A stretch of DNA of 64,000 nucleotides, taken from positions 14,945-78,944 of the forward strand of contig JBBIKG010000008.1 of NCBI GenBank assembly GCA_037445555.1. Reading direction: 5' to 3'. The notes under the pieces were generated by a model, which was not told the origin of the DNA, did not search any database, and saw only the letters and a program-made list of their open reading frames with translations. Source of the DNA: Lentimicrobiaceae bacterium. GTDB lineage: Bacteria > Bacteroidota > Bacteroidia > Bacteroidales > JAAYJT01. The translations under genes and the position numbers were made by a program. Shown in pieces: positions 10,246-63,364 of this stretch (positions within the stretch are counted from its first letter, which is position 1; each line of letters opens with the position of its first letter).

Positions 10246-10330
10246 CTATCAAAAAGCATTTGTTACACAAAAATGCATAATTTTTATAAAAAAGTAAGCG
10301 CGATATGCAATCAAAGATAGTAAATTTAAT

Positions 10331-10367
10331 GACAGGAGGCCGCCTCAATCCGAGGCGGCCTCCTGTC
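10331..10367 (-). terminator. Strong hairpin terminator after the third susD-like gene
   Basis: gacaggaggccgcctc / gaggcggcctcctgtc form a perfect 16-bp stem with a 5-nt loop, 25 nt past the stop codon. Confidence 0.7.
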
Positions 10368-10391
10368 ATTATCCTACTATAAGGTGTTTGA

Positions 10392-54208: not shown

Positions 54209-55300
54209 ATGGAATACATCGCGCGGCCCACCCTGCTACTGGATGAGGCCAAATGCATCACAAACATAAGGCGCATGGCTCACAAGGCCAGGGAGAATGG
54301 CGTGCTACTCCGGCCCCACTTCAAGACCCACCAGAGCCGGGATATTGGTCGTTTTTTTCAGGACTTTGGCGTGGACTCCGTCACGGTGTCATCGGTACCG
54401 ATGGCACAATATTTTGCTGCGGCGAGCTGGAGCAATATTACGATAGCTTTTCCGGTGAATCTTCGCGAGCTGCCCGGAATAAACCAACTGGCCGGGAAAG
54501 TACGCCTAAATGTACTGGTCGATTCTGCAGAGGTGGTAAAACGGCTCAGCCAGGGGCTGCATCACCAGGCTGGAGTATTCATAGAGATTGATACGGGCGG
54601 GGGGCGCTCGGGAGCGCCCCCCGCCAACAAAGCCCATCTTCAAGGTCTGATTAGCGAAATCAAAAAATCCCCGAATCTGGAATTTCGTGGCTTCCTGACA
54701 CATGCCGGTCAAACCTATGAGGCGCGGGGCGAACAGGCAATCCTGCAGATTCATACCCAATCCACAGCCCTGATGGCCGAACTGAAAAACTATTTTTCAT
54801 CAGAAAACCCAATCATTTCCACAGGCGACACCCCCTCGTGCAGCCTGGCCAATGAGTTTGGCTGCACCGATGAAATCCGGCCCGGAAATTTTGTGTTTTA
54901 CGACCTTACGCAGCACTATATCGGAAGCTGCGCACTGGAAGATGTTGCCGTGGCAGTGGCCTGCCCCGTGGTGGCGAAATACGCTTCACGCAACGAGCTG
55001 GTGATCTGTGGCGGGGCTATTCACCTGAGTAAAGATTTTGCTGTCAATTCACGCGGCGTGAAAGTGTTTGGACGCCTGGCCTTACTTGATGACGATCACT
55101 GGAAGGCTCTGCCGGAAGGTAATGAGCTGATCTCGCTGTCGCAGGAACACGGAGTAGCCCGGATGGAAGAAAAGTACATAAAGCTGCTTTCGCCCGGCGA
55201 CCTGGTCTGCGTCATACCTGCCCATTCCTGCCTTACAGTTGCATTACACAGCCAGTATCAGGGCCTGAGCGGCAGGCAATACGACATCATGCAGCGGTAA
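54209..55300 (+). CDS. D-TA-family PLP enzyme (alanine-racemase-fold; D-threonine aldolase / D-serine dehydratase-like)
   Basis: 363 aa. RPHFKTHQS (PLP-Lys context), and HSC near the C-terminus. Confidence 0.7.
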   Translation: MEYIARPTLLLDEAKCITNIRRMAHKARENGVLLRPHFKTHQSRDIGRFFQDFGVDSVTVSSVPMAQYFAAASWSNITIAFPVNLRELPGINQLAGKVRLNVLVDSAEVVKRLSQGLHHQAGVFIEIDTGGGRSGAPPANKAHLQGLISEIKKSPNLEFRGFLTHAGQTYEARGEQAILQIHTQSTALMAELKNYFSSENPIISTGDTPSCSLANEFGCTDEIRPGNFVFYDLTQHYIGSCALEDVAVAVACPVVAKYASRNELVICGGAIHLSKDFAVNSRGVKVFGRLALLDDDHWKALPEGNELISLSQEHGVARMEEKYIKLLSPGDLVCVIPAHSCLTVALHSQYQGLSGRQYDIMQR

Positions 55301-55353: not shown

Positions 55354-58323
55354 TCATGCTTCGGGCTTGAATACCACCCCGATGTTCTTCTTGCCGTCAA
55401 TAAGCACCGGAAGCGGTTTGTCAAACCTTACGTGACGAAGATATTCGTCTTCGTATAGCGCCGGTTGCTTCGACAAGTACTCCACATCATACACCCCTTC
55501 GTTGATGTAGGGATTAATGGTAAAATACCCCACCCTGAATGAGGTCAGGTTGTGGAAGAAGTGGGTGCCCTGGCTGGGATCTATCCTGTAGTTCTCCAAG
55601 CCGGATTCAACCATGACACGTGCGTTGGAAATCTGGGGCCATTTCACGGGTATGCCCAGCCATGGATCGCTTGATCCCCAGCGGCCAGGGCCAACGAGTA
55701 TATAAAATCTTTTTTCCGCAATCATCTGTTCGTTCAACCTGGCTAGGTCTTCGGCAATCTCGCTATTCTTTGCTGCGTTGAACGATTCGGGTTTTACATA
55801 CACCACATCAGTCAGGTTGCCGATGGTACCGTTGCCCATAGCCGTGGTCGAATACAGCAGTACCGACGACAGGTCGACAGCCTCAAGGTTGGTTTCCACC
55901 ATCTCCTTGCTTTGTACGATGGGCCTTATCTGGAGGAGGTTGAATACTTTTGGGTTCCCCTGGGTGTCAAGGTTTACAGCAAATTCTATTTCCACAGGTT
56001 TATTCATAGCCCGGTGCCCCATCGCAAGCGCTTCCAAGATAATATCAGCCAACGGAAACACATTATGCGTCAGTATGGCGCTGAAGGTGACAATCCGTCT
56101 GCCCTCGTCAAACATGCCGTCGCGCAGCTGGTTGGAGTGCGGGTCGAAGGTGCTGGCTACGAACCTCAGCGCGGGATGTTTCTCGGCTTCAGACAAACGC
56201 AGCTTCTTGATATTTACCCCGTCGTCGATGCAGGGATAAAAACTTTCGGCCTGAAGATCCAGGGCATGAAACGTGCGCTGCGTTTCTCTCAGGGCCAGTT
56301 CCGGAGTGCTGGTCTGCAGGATCTTTTTCGGGTACCGCGGCGAAAAGCGCAAGGTGAGCCCTCCATCCACGATGTACTTACCTAATCCATAGGCTATATT
56401 GGCGATGCCATCCATCGGCTTTTCGGGGGGTATCGGGTAAAAGTTAATGGATCGTGCCACCCCCGAAATGGTGGGATAATACAGATCGCCGTGTTGCGAT
56501 CCGCACACCTCCTGCAGCACAATGGCCATTTTTTCTTCTTCCATCACATTCAGCGTAGCCGACATGTAGGCCTTGCTGTCCTTATAATACGCCGAGGCAT
56601 ACACACTCTTGATGGCACCTGTCAGCATTTCTATCATCAACCGCTCTTCATTGGCTACGTAGGGTACCATATAGGTGCTGTAAATACCCGCAAATGGCTG
56701 ATAATACGAGTCTTCGAGCAGGCTTGACGAGCGTATGGCGATGGGACTTTTAACCACCGTGATGAAGGTATACAAATCTTCGTGTATGCGGAAAGGGAGG
56801 CGCGCGTTGACAAAATGCCGAAGGATCTCCTCATCGGGCAAATCACTCAGAGCCACCTGGTGCAACCGGTTGTCTTCCATAAACTCATCGAAAATATCGG
56901 TACAAAGCACCACGGTACGGGGGATGGTGATCTGAACGTCGGAATATTTCTCAAACGCGTGGTTCTGTTTGATCAGGTTATCGAGAAAAGCCAGACCGCG
57001 TGCCTTACCCCCGATCGAGCCGTCGCCTATGCGGGTGAAGTTGAGGTATTCATCAAAACTGTCGCGGTTGAATTTGGCGATGATGCCTCTCGATTTATTT
57101 AGCCTGTAAATGGCAATGGCATCAAACATGAAGCGGCGGAGGTCGTCCAGATCATTGAAATCTTCGGGGCGAAGCTCACGGAAAAGGTCGGCAAGCGAAA
57201 AGAGCGCCCTGGCCCGAAGCCATTTCGAGAAATGGTTTCGATCGACGTGATATTCAAGCGAACTGTCGGGGATGTCAAAAATTCTTTGCTGAAGTGCTTT
57301 GAGGTCATCTGCCCGCGCCACTTCGAGCTGGGTTAAAGGATCCTTGAAAACAAACGGACCGAACGAAAGATATTCAATCAGGAAACGCTTCAGCTCAAGC
57401 GAAAGGGTTTTGGAGTGCTTGTGGATAAAGCTTACCCTCAGTTGTTTTGCCGCCTCTCTCGCTTCCAGGTCGGATGATTGCAAAAGTATCGGCATAAACT
57501 CGTCTTGGGCTTTGACTTTTTGCACCAGCCTCAGCCCTGCTTCCGGATCAACTACGCCATTCCGGTTGTATTTCATATCGGTGATCACACCCAGAAGGTT
57601 ATGCTGATACTTATCGAACAGCTCCACCGCCTCCTCGTATGTGGTGGCGAGCAACACTTTTGGCCTCCCGCGCATCCGTAGCATCATCTGGTGTTCGTTA
57701 AGGCCTTCGGTCATGAATATTTTGCTCTGCTTGAAGATGATTTTAAAAATATGCGGCAGATAGGCCGAATAGAAACGTATGCTGTCCTCCACAAGCAGTA
57801 CGGCCTGCACACCCACCTCCTTCATATCATGCTCCATATTCATCTTATCCTCTATCAGCTTGACGATGGCAAGCAGGATGTCCGAATTACCGAGCCAGCA
57901 GAAGATGTAATCAATCACACTGGTATCCTCGCGGCTTACCTTGAGGGTGACCTCGCGCGAAAAAGCAGTAAGGACGACGATGGGAATATTCGGCCTGAAT
58001 TTCTTCACTTTTTTTGCCAGGTCAAACGTGTCGATGCCTTCATCGCTGAGCATGGTAATGATGAGGTCGATGTTTTCTTCGGCCAGGGTACGGAATGCCG
58101 CTTCGGGATTGTTAACCACAAAAAACTGGGGCGGGTAGCGCAAGCTCAGCGACACATATTCCATAAAAATCTGTTCATCCACCCTGCCGTCGCCTTCGAG
58201 TATAAAGGTGTCGTACTCACTGGCTATGAGAAGTATGTGATAGATACGCTTTTTCATCAGGTTGACAAAAGGCGTGTCTTCGAGGTAATATTTCTGAGCC
58301 AGTAATTTTTGCGCTTTATCCAT
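55354..58323 (-). CDS. Pseudo-receiver + receiver + PEP/pyruvate-binding (PPDK_N ATP-grasp-like) domain protein
   Basis: 989 aa. REC-like 1 is degenerate (ILLIASEYD, DLIITMLS). REC 2 keeps its acidic residues (VLLVEDS, GVITDMKY, FIHKHS). IGGKARGLAFL...IAIRSSSLLED resembles the PpsA/PPDK N-terminal nucleotide-binding domain. No GGxTSHAA swivel motif was seen. Confidence 0.7.
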   Translation of the reverse strand: MDKAQKLLAQKYYLEDTPFVNLMKKRIYHILLIASEYDTFILEGDGRVDEQIFMEYVSLSLRYPPQFFVVNNPEAAFRTLAEENIDLIITMLSDEGIDTFDLAKKVKKFRPNIPIVVLTAFSREVTLKVSREDTSVIDYIFCWLGNSDILLAIVKLIEDKMNMEHDMKEVGVQAVLLVEDSIRFYSAYLPHIFKIIFKQSKIFMTEGLNEHQMMLRMRGRPKVLLATTYEEAVELFDKYQHNLLGVITDMKYNRNGVVDPEAGLRLVQKVKAQDEFMPILLQSSDLEAREAAKQLRVSFIHKHSKTLSLELKRFLIEYLSFGPFVFKDPLTQLEVARADDLKALQQRIFDIPDSSLEYHVDRNHFSKWLRARALFSLADLFRELRPEDFNDLDDLRRFMFDAIAIYRLNKSRGIIAKFNRDSFDEYLNFTRIGDGSIGGKARGLAFLDNLIKQNHAFEKYSDVQITIPRTVVLCTDIFDEFMEDNRLHQVALSDLPDEEILRHFVNARLPFRIHEDLYTFITVVKSPIAIRSSSLLEDSYYQPFAGIYSTYMVPYVANEERLMIEMLTGAIKSVYASAYYKDSKAYMSATLNVMEEEKMAIVLQEVCGSQHGDLYYPTISGVARSINFYPIPPEKPMDGIANIAYGLGKYIVDGGLTLRFSPRYPKKILQTSTPELALRETQRTFHALDLQAESFYPCIDDGVNIKKLRLSEAEKHPALRFVASTFDPHSNQLRDGMFDEGRRIVTFSAILTHNVFPLADIILEALAMGHRAMNKPVEIEFAVNLDTQGNPKVFNLLQIRPIVQSKEMVETNLEAVDLSSVLLYSTTAMGNGTIGNLTDVVYVKPESFNAAKNSEIAEDLARLNEQMIAEKRFYILVGPGRWGSSDPWLGIPVKWPQISNARVMVESGLENYRIDPSQGTHFFHNLTSFRVGYFTINPYINEGVYDVEYLSKQPALYEDEYLRHVRFDKPLPVLIDGKKNIGVVFKPEA

Positions 58324-58424: not shown

Positions 58425-58796
58425 GGGACTGACCGGTTTTGACAGCAAGGAAGTGGTATTGTAAGCATGCCGGGCGTTGTGTTTTGGCCCGTTAATCCCA
58501 ATGCATATGCCAGATAAATGGCAACAATTACAATTACTCGTTAGCTGCTTAATCAAGCCTGATTAGGCGCTTTCTGCTTCCCGCAAAACTTTGCCTGGTG
58601 GTGTTGCGTACGAAGCATCGAAAAAACCGGGATTGGAAAGGTTCTGCTCTGCCGCCTTTCTGAAAAATCAGGAGCTAAGGATGTGGTGGGTTTGCCTTTG
58701 ACCAGTCTACATCCCGACAAGATAACAAAGGCTAAGCATGTAGAAAGCAGTATTGCTGCTTGTTTGGACGAGGGTTCGACTCCCTCCAGTTCCACC
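58425..58796 (+). ncRNA. ssrA: tmRNA (transfer-messenger RNA)
   Basis: The 5' GGGACUG pairs with the 3' CAGUUCC (G3:U wobble, the Ala identity element), followed by ACC. There is a T-arm GGGTTCGACTCCC. The tag reading frame is ggc aac aat tac aat tac tcg tta gct gct taa (58520-58552), giving GNNYNYSLAA*. Confidence 0.92.
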
Positions 58797-58803
58797 GCCA
58801 TAA

Positions 58804-58831
58804 GGCTGCCTCACCAGGGCAGCCTTTTTTT
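58804..58831 (+). terminator. Rho-independent terminator of ssrA
   Basis: ggctgcc / ggcagcc stem with a 7-nt loop, followed by T7. Confidence 0.8.
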
Positions 58832-59073: not shown

Positions 59074-59091
59074 TCCCGATTTTTATCGGGA
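59074..59091. repeat. Mini-palindrome family B copy (TCCCGAT-tttt-ATCGGGA)
   Basis: 7-bp arms with the same TCCCGA...TCGGGA core as 60101-60118 and 63347-63364. Confidence 0.8.
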
Positions 59092-59154
59092 CTCTGACAC
59101 GATCCGACTGAAAAACTTATCTTAACCGACTGAAATAGAAAACATAACTTGTAC

Positions 59155-62100
59155 ATGATTTTAAAAGAATTGAAACCTCGGAAGGCACTAAACAAAGCCT
59201 TTTTAAAAGTAAAACCGAACAGGACTGAAATTGAAGGTTTCAAGACTAATCTCATTACTTTACTCGAAAGGACAAATGACACGGAAAGCGAAGAGTTTCA
59301 TAAAAATTTGGTTTCCGACTTTCTTAAAGACACTTATTACAAGCAAAATCACTTTATAAATACCAAAGGTCGAAACGACCTTGTTATTCATAACGGACAA
59401 AATGCAAACTCGACAGTTGGAGTAATTATCGAAGCGAAAAAACCGACCAACAAAGCAGAAATGATTACTACCAAAAAACTGAATGCAAAAGCATTTCAGG
59501 AATTGGTTTTGTATTACCTACGTGAGAGAATTACACACAAAAATCTTGAAGTAAAACATTTGGTGGCGACCAACATAAACGAGTGGTTCATTTTTGACGC
59601 TACCCTATTCGACAGACTTTTTGCACAAAACAAAAACCTTGTAAAGCAATTCAACGACTTTGAAGCAGGTCGTTTGGCAGACACCAAAACGGACTTTTTC
59701 TACAAACAAGTTGTCGAGCCATTTATTGACCAATTATTAACTCCCCTCCCTGAAGGAGGGGCTGGGGGTGGGATTGAATTTACTTACTTCAACATTCAGG
59801 ACTTTCAAAAAACCATACGAAATAACGACAAAGCAGACGATAATTCGCTTATTGCCTTGTTCAAACTTTTATCGCCAGAGCATCTTCTAAAACTTCCGTT
59901 CACCAACGACAGCAACAGCCTTGACAAAAGATTTTACAGCGAGTTGTTGCACATCATCGGCTTGACCGAAACCAAAGAAGGAAGCAAAAAACTGATTGAA
60001 CGAAACAAAACAGGCGAACGAAACACAGGAACAATCCTTGAAGATGCTATTATTCAACTTGACAGCTTAGATAAACTTAGCCGACTTGAAAAGCCAAACC
60101 TCCCGATAGCTATCGGGATCGGAAACACACAGCAAGAAAGACTTTTTAATGTTGCTCTTGAACTTTCAATCACTTGGATAAACCGTATTTTGTTTTTGAA
60201 GTTGTTGGAAGCCCAACTCATCACCTATCACAAAGGCGACAAATCGTTTTCGTTTCTCAATCTTGACAAAATCAAAAACTATGACGACCTGAACAGCTTG
60301 TTTTTTCAGGTGTTGGCTCGTAAGTATGACGAGCGAAACGAAGATGTAAAAATGATTTTTGAGAAAGTGCCTTACCTCAATTCTTCTCTTTTCGAGCCGA
60401 CCGACATTGAGCAGGTTACTTTGTTTATCAGTAATCTGAAAGACGATAAAACTATTCCGATTTTTTCGCAAACCGTGCTGAAAGACCAGCAAGGAAAAAA
60501 ACGGACAGGCAACCTTTCAACGCTTCAATACCTGCTTGAGTTTTTGGATGCTTACGACTTTGGGGCAGAAGGCGGAGAAGAAATTCAGGAGGACAACAAA
60601 ACGCTTATCAATGCTTCGGTTCTTGGATTGATTTTCGAGAAAATAAACGGCTATAAAGACGGTTCGTTTTTCACTCCGGGTTTCATCACAATGTATATGT
60701 GCCGTGAAACCATTCGCAAAGCGGTGGTGCAGAAATTCAACGAAACCAAAAAATGGAACTGCACAACGCTTGAAGAACTTTACGACAAAATTGAAGACCG
60801 AAAAGAAGCCAACAAAATTGTAAACAGCATCAAAATTTGCGACCCTGCCGTTGGCTCCGGACACTTTTTGGTTTCGGCACTCAATGAAATGATTGCCGTT
60901 AAAAACGACTTGAAAATTCTGCAAGACCGTGACGGAAAACGCCTGAAAGAATATCAGGTGGAAGTGGTAAATGATGAATTGATTGTAACAGACGAAGAAG
61001 GAGAACTTTTTGAATACAACCCTACCAACAAGGAAAGCCAACGCATACAGGAAACACTGTTCCACGAAAAGCAAACCATTATTGAAAACTGCCTTTTCGG
61101 TGTGGACATCAATTCCAACTCTGTTAAAATTTGCCGTTTGCGTTTGTGGATTGAGCTTTTAAAAAACGCTTACTACATTCAAAGCTCCTCCCCTAATATA
61201 GGGGAGGTGTCCGAAGGACGGAGGGGTCAAGAACTATTAAATAACCTGCCATATTTAAAAACCTTCCGTAAAAATCTCCGCAAGAATCTGACTCCGGCAG
61301 AAGCTAAACTTTGGACAATGTTGAAAGGGAGGCAAATGGAAGGAAGAAAATTTAGAAGGCAACATAGTGTGGCTAATTATATTTTAGATTTTTATTGTCC
61401 TGAGGAACGACTTGCAATCGAATTAGACGGACAAGGGCATTTTGAGGATACTCAGGCAGAGTATGACCGCGAAAGAGATTTGTTTCTGGAGGCGTGTGGC
61501 ATTCGTGTATTAAGATTTGAGAACAAATGGGTGTGGGATAATCCTGACGGGCTGCTTGAGGAAGTAAAGAAGTATTTTGGCAAACAACCACCCCGTCAGC
61601 CTGTGGCTGACACCCCTCCTTACAAAGGAGGGGAACTATACAACCCCGGCTTTTCAAGCCACCCCTCCTTAATAGGAGGGGAGCTTAATGAGTTGCAAAC
61701 GCTACCGAATATTGACATCAACATCAAATGCGGAAACTCTTTGGTGAGCCGTTTTGCCATTGATGCTGACCTGAAACAAGCCTTGAAAAAAAGTAAGTGG
61801 ACCATTGACAGCTACCGAATTGCTGTTGACACATACCGCAATGCTGAAAGCAAGGAACAGAAAAGAGAAATGGAACGGCTGATTGCCGACATCAAATCGG
61901 ATTTCAGAAGTGAAATTGCTAAAAGTGATCCGAAGGCAAAAAAGCTGTATAGCCTCAAAGGAGAGCTACTCACACGAGCTACTCAGTATAAACTTTTTGA
62001 AATGAGCAAAAAGGAAAAAGCCGATTGGAACATAAAAGTAACGCAACTGACCGAAGAAACCAAAAAACTGGAGGCCGAAATTGAAGAAATCAATAACAAC

Positions 62101-63312
62101 AAGATTTTTGAAAATGCTTTTGAATGGCGTTTTGAATTTCCCGAAGTGCTGAATGATGATGGCGATTTTGTGGGCTTCGATGTGGTTATTGGAAATCCGC
62201 CGTATTTGACAGGCTCTGCATTTAGAGAGTATCAAAGTTTTTTCAACGCTACCTTCTCAACTGCGGAATATCAATTAGACCTTTATACTTTTTTCATTGA
62301 GTTGTCATATGGAATACTCAAATCAAAAGGAATTATTTCTCTTATCACACCAAATTCTTGGTTGAAAAATTTAAGGATGTCAAAAACAAGAAAATTTATT
62401 CTTGATAAATTTACAATCAAAGCATTAAATCCACATATCGCAAAAGCATTTGACGAAGCTTCGGTTGATACGCTCATTTTTATTGCATTTAAAGCTAAAA
62501 ACGAAAACAATTCACTTGAAATTTTTGATTTCAATTCATTAAAAAACTCTTTTACAAAAAATTCAATTCATCAAAACAGATTTTTAGAAAATGACAATTT
62601 AGTATTTGACGTTGAAGTTGATGAATCAGTTTTATTAATTCTGAAAAAAATCAGAAGCAATAGCGATATTCTTGCGGATAAATTTGAAATTACGAGAGGA
62701 GTAAATCCATACGATAAATATAGAGGACAAACTGAAGATGTTATTTCAACTAGAGCCTACCATTCTTCAACACAAAAAGACGACACATTTGTTCCCGAAC
62801 TTAAAGGCAAACACGTTTCAACATTCCACTATAAATGGGACAAAAAACATTTCATTAGTTACGGAAGTTGGTTAGCCGCGCCGAGAGAACCGAAATTTTT
62901 CAAAGGTATAAGGATAGTTTTTCGTGAAATTATCGGGGAACGATTTGTTTGCGCTGTAATTGAAGAAGATTTTATAATAGACCGCAGTCTATACATTGCA
63001 CTTCCTAAAGACGAAGAAATTGATGTTTATTACATTTTAGGTGTTTTATGTTCAAAAATGCTTGTGTGGCTATTTAAGTATGAGAAAAATGAATTTGACG
63101 AATTGTTCCCAAAAATCAGGCTTGAAGAATTTAAAAAGCTGCCTATTCCGAAAAGCAATAATCTCAAAGCAATAGGCAAGTTGGCTAAAGAAATTACAAA
63201 GTTGAAACAGCAAGGGATATACACAAGAGAAGAAGAAAACCAAATAGACCAATTGGTTTACCAACTTTACGACCTGACCGAAGAAGAAATTAAAATCATT
63301 GAGAACAGCTAA
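59155..63312 (+). CDS. Type IIG restriction-modification enzyme (PD-(D/E)xK nuclease + gamma-class N6-adenine methyltransferase, Eco57I-like + TaqI_C-like specificity region) with an in-frame DUF559 insertion
   Basis: ATG at 59155 (the track's TTG is 6 nt upstream). The N-terminus has D...EAK (NDLVIHNG...VGVIIEAKKP). Motif I is CDPAVGSGHFLV. Also NIKCGNSLVSRF and motif IV VVIGNPPY. The C-terminal third is a target-recognition-like region (ITRGVNPYD...). Confidence 0.85.
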   Translation: MILKELKPRKALNKAFLKVKPNRTEIEGFKTNLITLLERTNDTESEEFHKNLVSDFLKDTYYKQNHFINTKGRNDLVIHNGQNANSTVGVIIEAKKPTNKAEMITTKKLNAKAFQELVLYYLRERITHKNLEVKHLVATNINEWFIFDATLFDRLFAQNKNLVKQFNDFEAGRLADTKTDFFYKQVVEPFIDQLLTPLPEGGAGGGIEFTYFNIQDFQKTIRNNDKADDNSLIALFKLLSPEHLLKLPFTNDSNSLDKRFYSELLHIIGLTETKEGSKKLIERNKTGERNTGTILEDAIIQLDSLDKLSRLEKPNLPIAIGIGNTQQERLFNVALELSITWINRILFLKLLEAQLITYHKGDKSFSFLNLDKIKNYDDLNSLFFQVLARKYDERNEDVKMIFEKVPYLNSSLFEPTDIEQVTLFISNLKDDKTIPIFSQTVLKDQQGKKRTGNLSTLQYLLEFLDAYDFGAEGGEEIQEDNKTLINASVLGLIFEKINGYKDGSFFTPGFITMYMCRETIRKAVVQKFNETKKWNCTTLEELYDKIEDRKEANKIVNSIKICDPAVGSGHFLVSALNEMIAVKNDLKILQDRDGKRLKEYQVEVVNDELIVTDEEGELFEYNPTNKESQRIQETLFHEKQTIIENCLFGVDINSNSVKICRLRLWIELLKNAYYIQSSSPNIGEVSEGRRGQELLNNLPYLKTFRKNLRKNLTPAEAKLWTMLKGRQMEGRKFRRQHSVANYILDFYCPEERLAIELDGQGHFEDTQAEYDRERDLFLEACGIRVLRFENKWVWDNPDGLLEEVKKYFGKQPPRQPVADTPPYKGGELYNPGFSSHPSLIGGELNELQTLPNIDINIKCGNSLVSRFAIDADLKQALKKSKWTIDSYRIAVDTYRNAESKEQKREMERLIADIKSDFRSEIAKSDPKAKKLYSLKGELLTRATQYKLFEMSKKEKADWNIKVTQLTEETKKLEAEIEEINNNKIFENAFEWRFEFPEVLNDDGDFVGFDVVIGNPPYLTGSAFREYQSFFNATFSTAEYQLDLYTFFIELSYGILKSKGIISLITPNSWLKNLRMSKTRKFILDKFTIKALNPHIAKAFDEASVDTLIFIAFKAKNENNSLEIFDFNSLKNSFTKNSIHQNRFLENDNLVFDVEVDESVLLILKKIRSNSDILADKFEITRGVNPYDKYRGQTEDVISTRAYHSSTQKDDTFVPELKGKHVSTFHYKWDKKHFISYGSWLAAPREPKFFKGIRIVFREIIGERFVCAVIEEDFIIDRSLYIALPKDEEIDVYYILGVLCSKMLVWLFKYEKNEFDELFPKIRLEEFKKLPIPKSNNLKAIGKLAKEITKLKQQGIYTREEENQIDQLVYQLYDLTEEEIKIIENS
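59743..59761. repeat. Mini-palindrome family A copy (CCCCTCC-ctgaa-GGAGGGG), translated in-frame as ...PLPEGGAGGG...
   Basis: Perfect 7-bp GC-rich arms inside the R-M ORF. Confidence 0.85.
60101..60118. repeat. Mini-palindrome family B copy (TCCCGATAGCTATCGGGA), translated in-frame as ...LPIAIGIG...
   Basis: Perfect 18-bp palindrome inside the R-M ORF. Confidence 0.85.
61187..61207. repeat. Mini-palindrome family A variant (CCTCCCCT-aatat-AGGGGAGG) at the left edge of the DUF559 insert
   Basis: Perfect 8-bp arms, followed by a second small hairpin (gtcc-gaa-ggac). Translated as SSPNIGEVSEGRRG. Confidence 0.85.
61246..61578 (+). mobile_element. DUF559 / Vsr-like endonuclease module nested in-frame within the R-M gene
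   Basis: LPYLKTFRKNLRKNLTPAEAKLWTMLKGRQMEGRKFRRQHSVANYILDFYCPEERLAIELDGQGHF...YDRERDLFLEACGIRVLRFEN matches the remembered DUF559 pattern (LR...T.aE..LW..LR......FrRQ..i..yi.DF.c...klviE.DG..H......D..Rd..L...G..vlRf). Confidence 0.7.
61613..61633. repeat. Mini-palindrome family A copy (CCCCTCCT-tacaa-AGGAGGGG) at the right edge of the DUF559 insert
   Basis: Perfect 8-bp arms. Translated as TPPYKGGE. Confidence 0.85.
61662..61681. repeat. Mini-palindrome family A copy (CCCCTCCT-taat-AGGAGGGG), second copy at the right edge
   Basis: Perfect 8-bp arms. Translated as HPSLIGGE. Confidence 0.85.
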
Positions 63313-63346
63313 AAAGCCAGAAATGCCACCGCTTCACAGTCACGCA

Positions 63347-63364
63347 TCCCGAAAGCTTTCGGAA
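63347..63364. repeat. Mini-palindrome family B-like copy (TCCCGAAAGCTTTCGGAA) just past the R-M stop codon
   Basis: 14-bp perfect core ccgaaagctttcgg. It shares the TCCCGAnAGCTnTCGG design with 60101-60118. Confidence 0.7.

Follow-up and report, generated by a model that had tools for sequence, protein, structure and literature searches.

In a 64,000-nt stretch of DNA from a Lentimicrobiaceae bacterium (contig JBBIKG010000008.1; hereafter the window), two families of short palindromes, A and B, lie in and beside a restriction–modification (R-M) gene at 59155-63312. We found that family A is the hairpin portion of a larger unit, the triplex motif (TM), in which a G/T tract mirrors one hairpin arm, and that three such units bracket a DUF559 nuclease open reading frame (ORF) embedded in-frame in the R-M gene. 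Our preferred explanation, to which we assign a probability of about 0.65, is that a type IIG R-M gene subject to horizontal transfer received short insertion DNA of two unrelated, structure-forming families, and that TM–DUF559–TM is itself mobile by the mechanism proposed below. An earlier note on this DNA likened the palindromes to hairpin elements and allowed that they might mark recognition structures for a mobilizer of the DUF559 cassette; that interpretation was largely right in spirit and incomplete, the hairpin having been seen and the third-strand tract missed.

Insertion polymorphism of palindromes in an R-M gene

Exact pattern searches of the window placed CCCCTCC-N-GGAGGGG (family A) at 59743, 61613, and 61662, its permuted form CCTCCCC-N-GGGGAGG at 61187, and TCCCGA-N6-TCGGGA (family B) at 59074 and 60101, with 0.00 to 0.02 matches to the family A and family B patterns expected from window shuffles; no further copy of either family was found by these searches in the other ~59 kb. 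The palindromes listed in the earlier note all exist and exceed chance, although its copy at 63347 proved imperfect. Its view that they are confined to this islet, accompanying the foreign R-M gene and not host DNA in the window, stands, copies and triplex units alike being found only there. The frame is likewise unbroken, as had been claimed: no stop interrupts ORF 59155-63312 at 60101 or at any of the four family A copies inside it, and these five copies contribute the peptides PLPEGGAGGG, LPIAIGIG, SSSPNIGEV, PPYKGGE, and PSLIGGE. The window contains 13 GC-rich perfect hairpins (stem at least 7 bp), five of them within the islet, which makes up 7.5% of the length; the remaining eight have unrelated sequences. 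Two long perfect GC-rich inverted repeats, at 10327-10371 (20-bp stem TAATGACAGGAGGCCGCCTC, 5-nt loop) and 54596-54625 (14-bp stem GGCGGGGGGCGCTC, 2-nt loop), are unrelated to either family.

The host gene is as follows.

59155-63312, plus strand: R-M host gene, 1385 aa, type IIG-like by domain and ORF evidence

The protein contains DUF7149, DUF7814, an Eco57I-type N6-adenine methyltransferase, and a TaqI_C specificity domain. DUF7149 carries a D...EAK nuclease-type motif, read by eye, and is a putative N-terminal nuclease; the methyltransferase motifs are DPAVGSGHF and NPPY, and the methyltransferase domain is split by the DUF559 insert. As predicted from these features, the gene has the type IIG (Eco57I/MmeI-like) layout, in which one polypeptide carries a nuclease domain at its N terminus, motifs I and IV of a gamma-class N6-A methyltransferase, and a specificity domain at its C terminus. 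Its GC content is 33-43%, against ~50% elsewhere in the window. At least 8000 database proteins match it, with identities of 64-93% among the 120 best listed, most of which are ~1205-1215 aa long without DUF559 and a minority 1350-1480 aa long with it. Homologues at loci L001-L080 share 85-93% protein identity over the first two thirds and come from bins labeled Bacteroidota, Verrucomicrobia, Proteobacteria, Clostridia, and Dojkabacteria, some of which labels may be binning errors, and the C-terminal specificity domain is swapped between alleles. These comparisons point to a very mobile gene whose specificity domains are shuffled.

Alignment of 67 R-M alleles from these loci (protein and DNA alignments) revealed that every palindrome of the two families is an insertion/deletion polymorphism among roughly 90%-identical alleles, which bears out the earlier proposal of inserted elements colonizing coding sequence. 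Of the 67 alleles, 6 carry the 27-nt insert at 59742 (in decayed form in two), 3 the net 15-nt family B insert at 60101, and 12 the DUF559 block, at an identical codon position between KNAYY and ELxTLPNIDINIKC; 50 of the 67 are empty at all three sites. All four presence/absence combinations were seen for every pair of insert sites, the alleles closest to the window (92% DNA identity) have none of the three inserts, and flanking sequence covaries with the insert at site 59742. In a contig from a related sample, 61177 is followed directly by 61697, and the intervening 519 nt are missing. The DUF559 site is an insertion hot spot: independent solo TM units of other sequence types occupy it in L041, L060, L066, and L072, and unrelated palindromes in L018, L036, L049, and L054, in every case without DUF559. 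Among the latter loci, a 32-nt perfect palindrome CCATAGCCCATGATTTAAATCATGGGCTATGG (peptide ...HGLNRGLW...) is one mini-insert at the codon position equivalent to ~61178 of the window, and L018 has a 38-nt insert with a 16-bp stem at the equivalent position. An AlphaFold2 model of aa 540-1100 (mean predicted local distance difference test score 56.5; whole insert, aa 672-870, below 50; host parts 70-85) suggests that the DUF559 insert lies between two predicted helices and is too weak for more.

The triplex-motif unit and the DUF559 cassette

A family A unit spans 30-48 nt. A hairpin made of a pyrimidine arm, a loop, and a purine arm is followed by a linker, which often holds a further variable hairpin, and then by a G/T tract. 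This tract is a mirror copy of the purine arm in which G stays G and A becomes T or A: the purine arms GGAGGGG, GGAGGAG, GGGGAGG, GGGGGAG, and GGGGAGC are paired with the tracts GGGGTGGTT, GAGGTGGTT, GGAGGGGT, GAGGGGGT, and TGAGGGGT, respectively. Over 150 related units, the mirror relation was perfect in 87 and had at most one mismatch in 109, and the match fraction was 0.885 compared to 0.811 in permutations, a difference of 11 standard deviations. Owing to this mirror relation, the tract could pair with the hairpin as a third, antiparallel strand, G aligning with G-C and T or A with A-T. Judged from sequence, the mirror repeat is the signature of an antiparallel purine-motif triple helix and not what a dimeric DNA-binding protein would be expected to select. 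The variable second hairpin occupies the place that the connecting loop of a triplex would take.

Searching both strands of the window with a triplex-architecture finder returned exactly four units, all in the R-M gene (shuffle mean 0.11), at 59743-59771 (plus), 61187-61228 (plus), 61586-61633 (minus), and 61640-61681 (minus). Their stems, at 59743, 61187, 61613, and 61662, are perfect over 7-9 bp, and the third tract has zero or one mismatch in all four. The spacer between purine arm and third block is 3 nt in the solo unit; in the three cassette units it is 12-18 nt long and contains a second hairpin. Solo TM units of other loci include both kinds of spacer. The units and the cassette are arranged as follows.

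59739-59771, plus strand: solo TM unit, a 27-nt in-frame insertion (peptide PLPEGGAGG), with AACT, CCCCTCC (59743-59749), loop CTGAA, GGAGGGG (59755-59761), linker CTG, and GGGGTGG (59765-59771)
61178-61696, plus strand: DUF559 cassette, 519 nt, comprising a TM unit, the DUF559 ORF, and two TM units, in-frame in the methyltransferase domain
61183-61228, plus strand: 5′ TM unit, with AGCT, CCTCCCCTA-ATA-TAGGGGAGG (61187-61207), linker hairpin GTCCGAAGGAC (61209-61219), and third strand GGAGGGGT (61220-61227)
61258-61572, plus strand: DUF559 nuclease domain (Vsr-like PD-(D/E)XK), aa 702-806; Pfam PF04480, 1.1e-30; PDB 3HRL, 2.8e-18
61586-61633, minus strand: 3′ TM unit 1, with CCCCTCCTT-TGT-AAGGAGGGG (61613-61633), linker hairpin GTCAGCC-N3-GGCTGAC (61595-61611), and third strand GGGGTGGTT (complement of 61586-61594)
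61640-61685, minus strand: 3′ TM unit 2, with AGCT, CCCCTCCT-ATTA-AGGAGGGG (61662-61681), a linker hairpin, and third strand GGGGTTGT with one mismatch

This layout was reported earlier as BoxC (E. coli, 1990s), PIT (Hoyne/Maher 2000), and TM or TMECO (Holder et al., Nucleic Acids Res 2015, PMC4666352). Since its block order matches theirs, family A is a member of this known class and not a new kind of element. Like family A, BoxC/PIT/TM have a pyrimidine arm, loop, purine arm, spacer, and mirrored G/T tract, and they are G/C-rich, highly conserved, and multi-copy, occurring singly or as inverted pairs. The TMECO consensus is CCCTCNCCC-N3-6-GGGNGAGGG-N3-GGGNGAGGG, TM occur in over 260 genomes, and TMECO as single-stranded DNA forms a stable triplex in vitro by circular dichroism and nuclear magnetic resonance (PMC4666352). 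Three differences set family A apart: the arm is CCCCTCCTT or CCTCCCC and not the CCCTCNCCC of E. coli TMECO; the spacer is often 12-18 nt with a second hairpin, whereas that of TMECO is 3 nt, within an ITxF range of 1-6 nt (PMC4666352); and units lie inside ORFs, are translated, and bracket DUF559, whereas TMECO was described as "always intergenic" in E. coli, with no mobility function or common flanking gene (PMC4666352) and no linked gene reported. A role as an RNA element was considered and rejected, given that Rfam at permissive thresholds returned only sub-threshold miRNA-like hairpins and no matching family, that purine-motif triplexes do not form in RNA, and that TM/PIT lack promoter and terminator activity (PMC4666352).

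The three cassette TM units bracket the DUF559 ORF with their third strands inward; the second 3′ unit is found in only part of the DUF559-bearing alleles. DUF559 is the only ORF in the cassette, which encodes no recognized transposase. Among solved structures, the N. gonorrhoeae DUF559 protein 3HRL is closest, and according to the literature the DUF559/Vsr clade takes in the EDxHD homing endonuclease family. The motifs ILDFYC, ELDG..H, and VLRF.N are intact in the window and invariant in 79 copies, none of which has stops, so that the nuclease is likely active as far as its sequence indicates. The R-M ORF is continuous, and we detected no Hint or splicing motif, no intein domain in Pfam, and no Rfam intron. 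With neither intron nor intein, the DUF559 insert stays in the protein.

To place the cassette among its relatives, we used 80 fetched DUF559 loci with 61-92% identity to the window segment, 79 of which entered the counts. About half of the 80 carry the domain as an in-frame part of a long ORF, the host genes being HsdS (type I), HsdM, type ISP, and PglX/Eco57I-type (type IIG); all 10 representative hosts examined are DNA-recognizing R-M proteins. At 68% identity or less the gene is free-standing and intergenic, in many phyla. In nearly all relatives the 5′ flank has the order ARYT, pyrimidine arm, loop, purine arm, variable second hairpin, and GGGGTGGTT, and the 3′ flank is the reverse complement of this layout; the conserved ARYT beside the hairpin may be part of the element or a target preference. 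A pyrimidine-arm hairpin flanks DUF559 on the 5′ side in 64/79 and on the 3′ side in 65/79. Thus, the suggestion that family A marks the DUF559 cassette is borne out for the ends (~81% of the 79 on each side), while mobilization through recognition of these ends would be a further step. The ends are inverted TM units, forming perfect 46-nt inverted repeats in L135 and L145.

Distribution of triplex motifs, DUF559, and family B

We asked how far the association of TM with DUF559 extends. In 12 distant DUF559 loci (35-48% identity; cyanobacteria, alpha-, beta-, and gamma-proteobacteria, and Deinococcus), TM-type units lie within 500 nt of DUF559 in 11, with 33 hits compared to 0.06 in shuffles, and the arm sequence varies by lineage, each with its own mirrored tract. 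As local controls we used nine 50-kb regions around DUF559. TM density was 2.47 per kb within 500 nt of DUF559 and 0.153 elsewhere (16-fold, binomial p = 6e-23), all nine regions had a TM unit within that distance, and ~13 separate TM clusters lay in the remaining 438 kb. Long, regular TM arrays with a spacing of ~70-180 nt were seen in Photobacterium sp. GJ3 (directly after the DUF559 gene, with another ~17-20 kb away) and in an N. gonorrhoeae record (a 23-unit series 7-9.5 kb from the DUF559 gene).

In E. coli K-12, TMECO no. 9 (1,351,204-1,351,239) lies 168 nt past the stop of ycjD, which we take to be the only DUF559 gene of that genome, if the published coordinates refer to NC_000913.3, and the NC_000913.3 record, as read, does show the motif sequence there. 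A degenerate TM unit overlaps the ycjD stop codon. With 23 TMECO copies in 4.6 Mb, the rough chance expectation for such proximity is ~0.006. The region downstream of ycjD (1351040-1351410) holds a partial duplication of the ycjD 3′ end, TM remnants, and the complete TMECO, and from its sequence looks like a rearrangement scar at a cassette end. Literature searches pairing DUF559 with palindromes, homing, R-M, or triplex, together with searches for ycjD and for the motif strings, turned up no description of the TM–DUF559 association.

Drawing on the hairpin itself gave 152 family A copies in at least 120 stretches from many phyla, so TM units are multi-copy and dispersed, with solo units, cargo-free inverted pairs, and tandem arrays all represented. 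Among the matches listed, 15 of the 152 copies have a DUF559 ORF no more than 400 nt away, and DUF559 occurs in 8/120 loci drawn by the TM hairpin versus 0/120 drawn by family B. Twenty of the 152 copies lie within long ORFs, a few of which are probably spurious ORFs in high-GC DNA; by eye, the TM-bearing ORFs resemble RarA, Lgt, and a beta-CASP nuclease in Patescibacteria, as well as a PanE-like reductase and a 2265-aa surface protein. The most heavily colonized gene we saw is an MmeI-like R-M ORF of 1148 aa at L265, with five translated TM units and DUF559.

Family B is a second, independent, dispersed palindromic mini-insertion of 16-18 nt, without a known protein partner, and the earlier idea of tying it to the DUF559 cassette fails. 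Its copies in the window are as follows.

59074-59091: palindrome TCCCGATTTTTATCGGGA in the R-M leader, replacing GCCAACG of the leader conserved in most alleles
60101-60118: perfect 18-mer TCCCGATAGCTATCGGGA, in-frame (LPIAIGI), replacing AAT of empty alleles for a net gain of 15 nt
63347-63364: imperfect variant TCCCGAAAGCTTTCGGAA, 17/18 bases, 35 nt past the stop codon

Within the 63347 copy, pairing is perfect only in CCGAAAGCTTTCGG (63349-63362); its perfect form, TCCCGAAAGCTTTCGGGA, is found upstream of allele L060. At least 120 stretches contain TCCCGATAGCTATCGGGA in its exact 18-mer form, every one of the listed matches being from Bacteroidota, against a rough chance expectation of ~10-20 for the whole collection. 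The 80 R-M loci hold 13 family B copies or variants at five positions, in a minority of alleles (0.1 expected), with the variant cores TAGCTA, AAGCTT, TTTTTA, and GACT. The flanks are not conserved, 11/130 copies lie in long ORFs, and flank repeats of 3-5 nt accompany 16/130 copies, some within tandem-repeat regions. At L313, L351, and L358 the 18-mer sits within the linker of a family-A-like unit, between the purine arm and the G-rich tail, and hence the two palindrome families can nest. These three loci hint at insertion of family B into hairpin loops, an idea we rejected because extended flank symmetry was present in only 3/130 copies.

The low-GC R-M islet starts directly downstream of a transfer-messenger RNA (tmRNA) gene, which is followed by a terminator-like hairpin at 58802-58826.

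58425-58796, plus strand: tmRNA gene (ARAGORN; Rfam RF00023), tag peptide GNNYNYSLAA, context

No integrase or transposase was found among the three ORFs checked that adjoin the islet, and a search for an att-type direct repeat of the tmRNA 3′ end bounding it found none. The neighboring ORF at 55354-58323 (minus strand, 988 aa) belongs to the ordinary host DNA and has no relation to the islet; its domains are a response-regulator receiver and PPDK_N (pyruvate phosphate dikinase-type ATP-binding).

Proposed mechanism, alternatives, and related systems

The anatomy of the units, their insertion polymorphism, the covariation of arms and tract, and the association with DUF559 are shown by the data above. 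As a mechanism, we propose that TM ends would fold while the DNA is single-stranded, in replication, repair, or transfer, that the DUF559 nuclease would recognize or nick the folded ends, and that break repair would then carry copies of the whole cassette, or of one end, to homologous alleles and now and then to new sites. Copies landing in genes would survive selection only if in-frame and in surface loops that tolerate them, and as a result the arms would be read as Gly/Pro/Ser-rich linkers, the pyrimidine arm as Pro/Ser and the purine arm as Gly/Glu. A bolder extension, which we hold tentatively and think somewhat more likely to be wrong than right, is that DUF559 (YcjD-type) is the missing protein partner of BoxC/PIT/TM. 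TM–DUF559–TM would then be the autonomous form of a pan-bacterial, structure-defined mobile DNA whose ends are recognized as folded hairpin or triplex DNA, solo units would be its nonautonomous ends that have spread, and the in-frame form would act as a non-splicing, intein-like insert that markedly prefers R-M genes.

Several observations weigh against the proposed mobility. No recent excision or insertion was found in sister-sample assembler contigs, whose "empty" members are diverged alleles, and neither these contigs nor the alleles give direct evidence of recent cassette movement. Although the comparison of orthologous R-M genes suggested in the earlier note did find empty sites, a consistent target-site duplication did not emerge when filled and empty junctions were compared. 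On duplex DNA in vivo, TM gave no triplex footprint (PMC4666352), and DUF559 is not known to act on triplex or hairpin DNA. The ends of the window cassette, as in most R-M alleles, are of different TM types and so are not strict terminal inverted repeats. Some of the enrichment near DUF559 arises because TM units are mostly intergenic, although it is still strong per locus (9/9). Among the matches listed, ~90% of sampled TM hairpins have no nearby DUF559, and in distant lineages, among them Deinococcus, Klebsiella, and E. coli, TM units differ in how they are oriented to DUF559. Finally, the patchy distribution in the R-M family could also stem from one ancient insertion with later recombination and loss.

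Two of these features of TM, frequent separation from DUF559 and variable orientation in distant lineages, would also be expected if TM were passive structure-prone DNA that builds up or arises where tolerated, and DUF559 either a repair or housekeeping nuclease that processes such structures or a passenger that tends to land in them or be retained between them. The finding of Holder et al. that TM are linked to local indel variability without any mobility gene (PMC4666352) fits this account, as does the gathering of unrelated palindromes at the DUF559 site (L018, L036, L049, L054), which suggests a permissive hot spot. We nevertheless consider it unlikely, because ends and nuclease travel jointly into at least five R-M protein families across phyla, arm type shifts with DUF559 lineage, and every local control has a TM unit close to DUF559. 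We give still less credence to the idea that the DUF559 block is an adaptive nuclease module and that the Gly/Pro-rich patches were selected as protein linkers, with DNA palindromy incidental. The embedded copies are indeed all in-frame, intact, and conserved, the 10 representative hosts are all R-M proteins, and decayed palindromes in L007 and L040 still give similar peptides. However, free-standing intergenic DUF559 and solo intergenic units share the same flanks, pairing and the mirror relation survive peptide-altering changes, the domain is absent from most alleles of a very conserved gene, and in DUF7149 the host protein possesses a putative nuclease domain of its own at the N terminus.

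Two further accounts concern the origin of the palindromes as DNA. The elements are short, hairpin-forming, dispersed, and noncoding, and they occur solo, as inverted pairs, and in arrays, much as repetitive extragenic palindromic (REP/BIME) or IS200/IS605-type hairpins mobilized in trans by a Y1 enzyme (RAYT/TnpA) from donor genomes would. We regard this as highly improbable: the palindromes lack GTAG/CGTC heads, which removes, for family A, the REP-type resemblance suggested in the earlier note; the RAYT/Y1 gene it proposed to look for was not found among the three islet-adjacent ORFs, nor was any transposase found there or in the 160 DUF559 and R-M loci inspected; a Y1 enzyme leaves the conserved mirrored third tract unexplained; and the statistically linked gene is DUF559. 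An origin in place, through replication template switching (quasi-palindrome correction) or chance, is effectively refuted. Such switching can yield small perfect palindromes, and the unconserved flanks of family B would suit it, but at least 120 stretches share the 18-mer and at least 120 share the TM units, the palindromes are clean insertions of new sequence relative to empty alleles, and shuffles give ~0.

The cassette we propose to be mobile resembles several known systems in part. Rickettsia palindromic elements (RPE), reportedly described by Ogata et al. in 2000, are said to be short palindromic selfish repeats lying in-frame in genes and tolerated in surface-exposed segments. They share with family A the in-frame palindromic repeat translated as an extra peptide, but they are 100-150 bp long, AT-rich, and found only in Rickettsia, with no third-strand tract, no linked nuclease, and no sequence relationship. 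Homing endonuclease genes, of which I-Bth0305I is a Vsr-like/EDxHD example (Taylor et al. 2011, PMC3239194), similarly place a small Vsr-fold ORF, present or absent, at one precise site of a conserved gene, and the covarying flank at site 59742 resembles homing-type co-conversion; the cassette differs in having no intron or intein, in its structured TM ends, and in its many unrelated host genes, a spread that does not fit classical site-specific homing. Miniature inverted-repeat transposable elements and REP/BIME are, like TM, short nonautonomous units with inverted ends, and these units, together with inverted pairs and arrays, outnumber the coding form, whereas TM have no recognized transposase, no clear target-site duplication, and no REP head, and are defined by a mirror repeat in addition to an inverted one.

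What appears to be new and undescribed here is the presence of family A in-frame inside genes and its pairing with DUF559. BoxC/PIT/TM, which form triplexes in vitro, have been known from hundreds of genomes since the 1990s. No gene was linked to them in the main study, and the reproducible tie to one small nuclease family that includes E. coli YcjD makes this old question testable at the bench. TM repeats are not limited to intergenic DNA: they, as well as a whole nuclease domain, can be translated within R-M enzymes, and solo units also lie in ORFs that, judged by eye, resemble housekeeping proteins. For annotation, DUF559 "fusions" and Gly/Pro-rich patches may therefore be insertions, and the finding bears on how R-M genes diversify and on where permissive insertion loops can be found in R-M enzymes.

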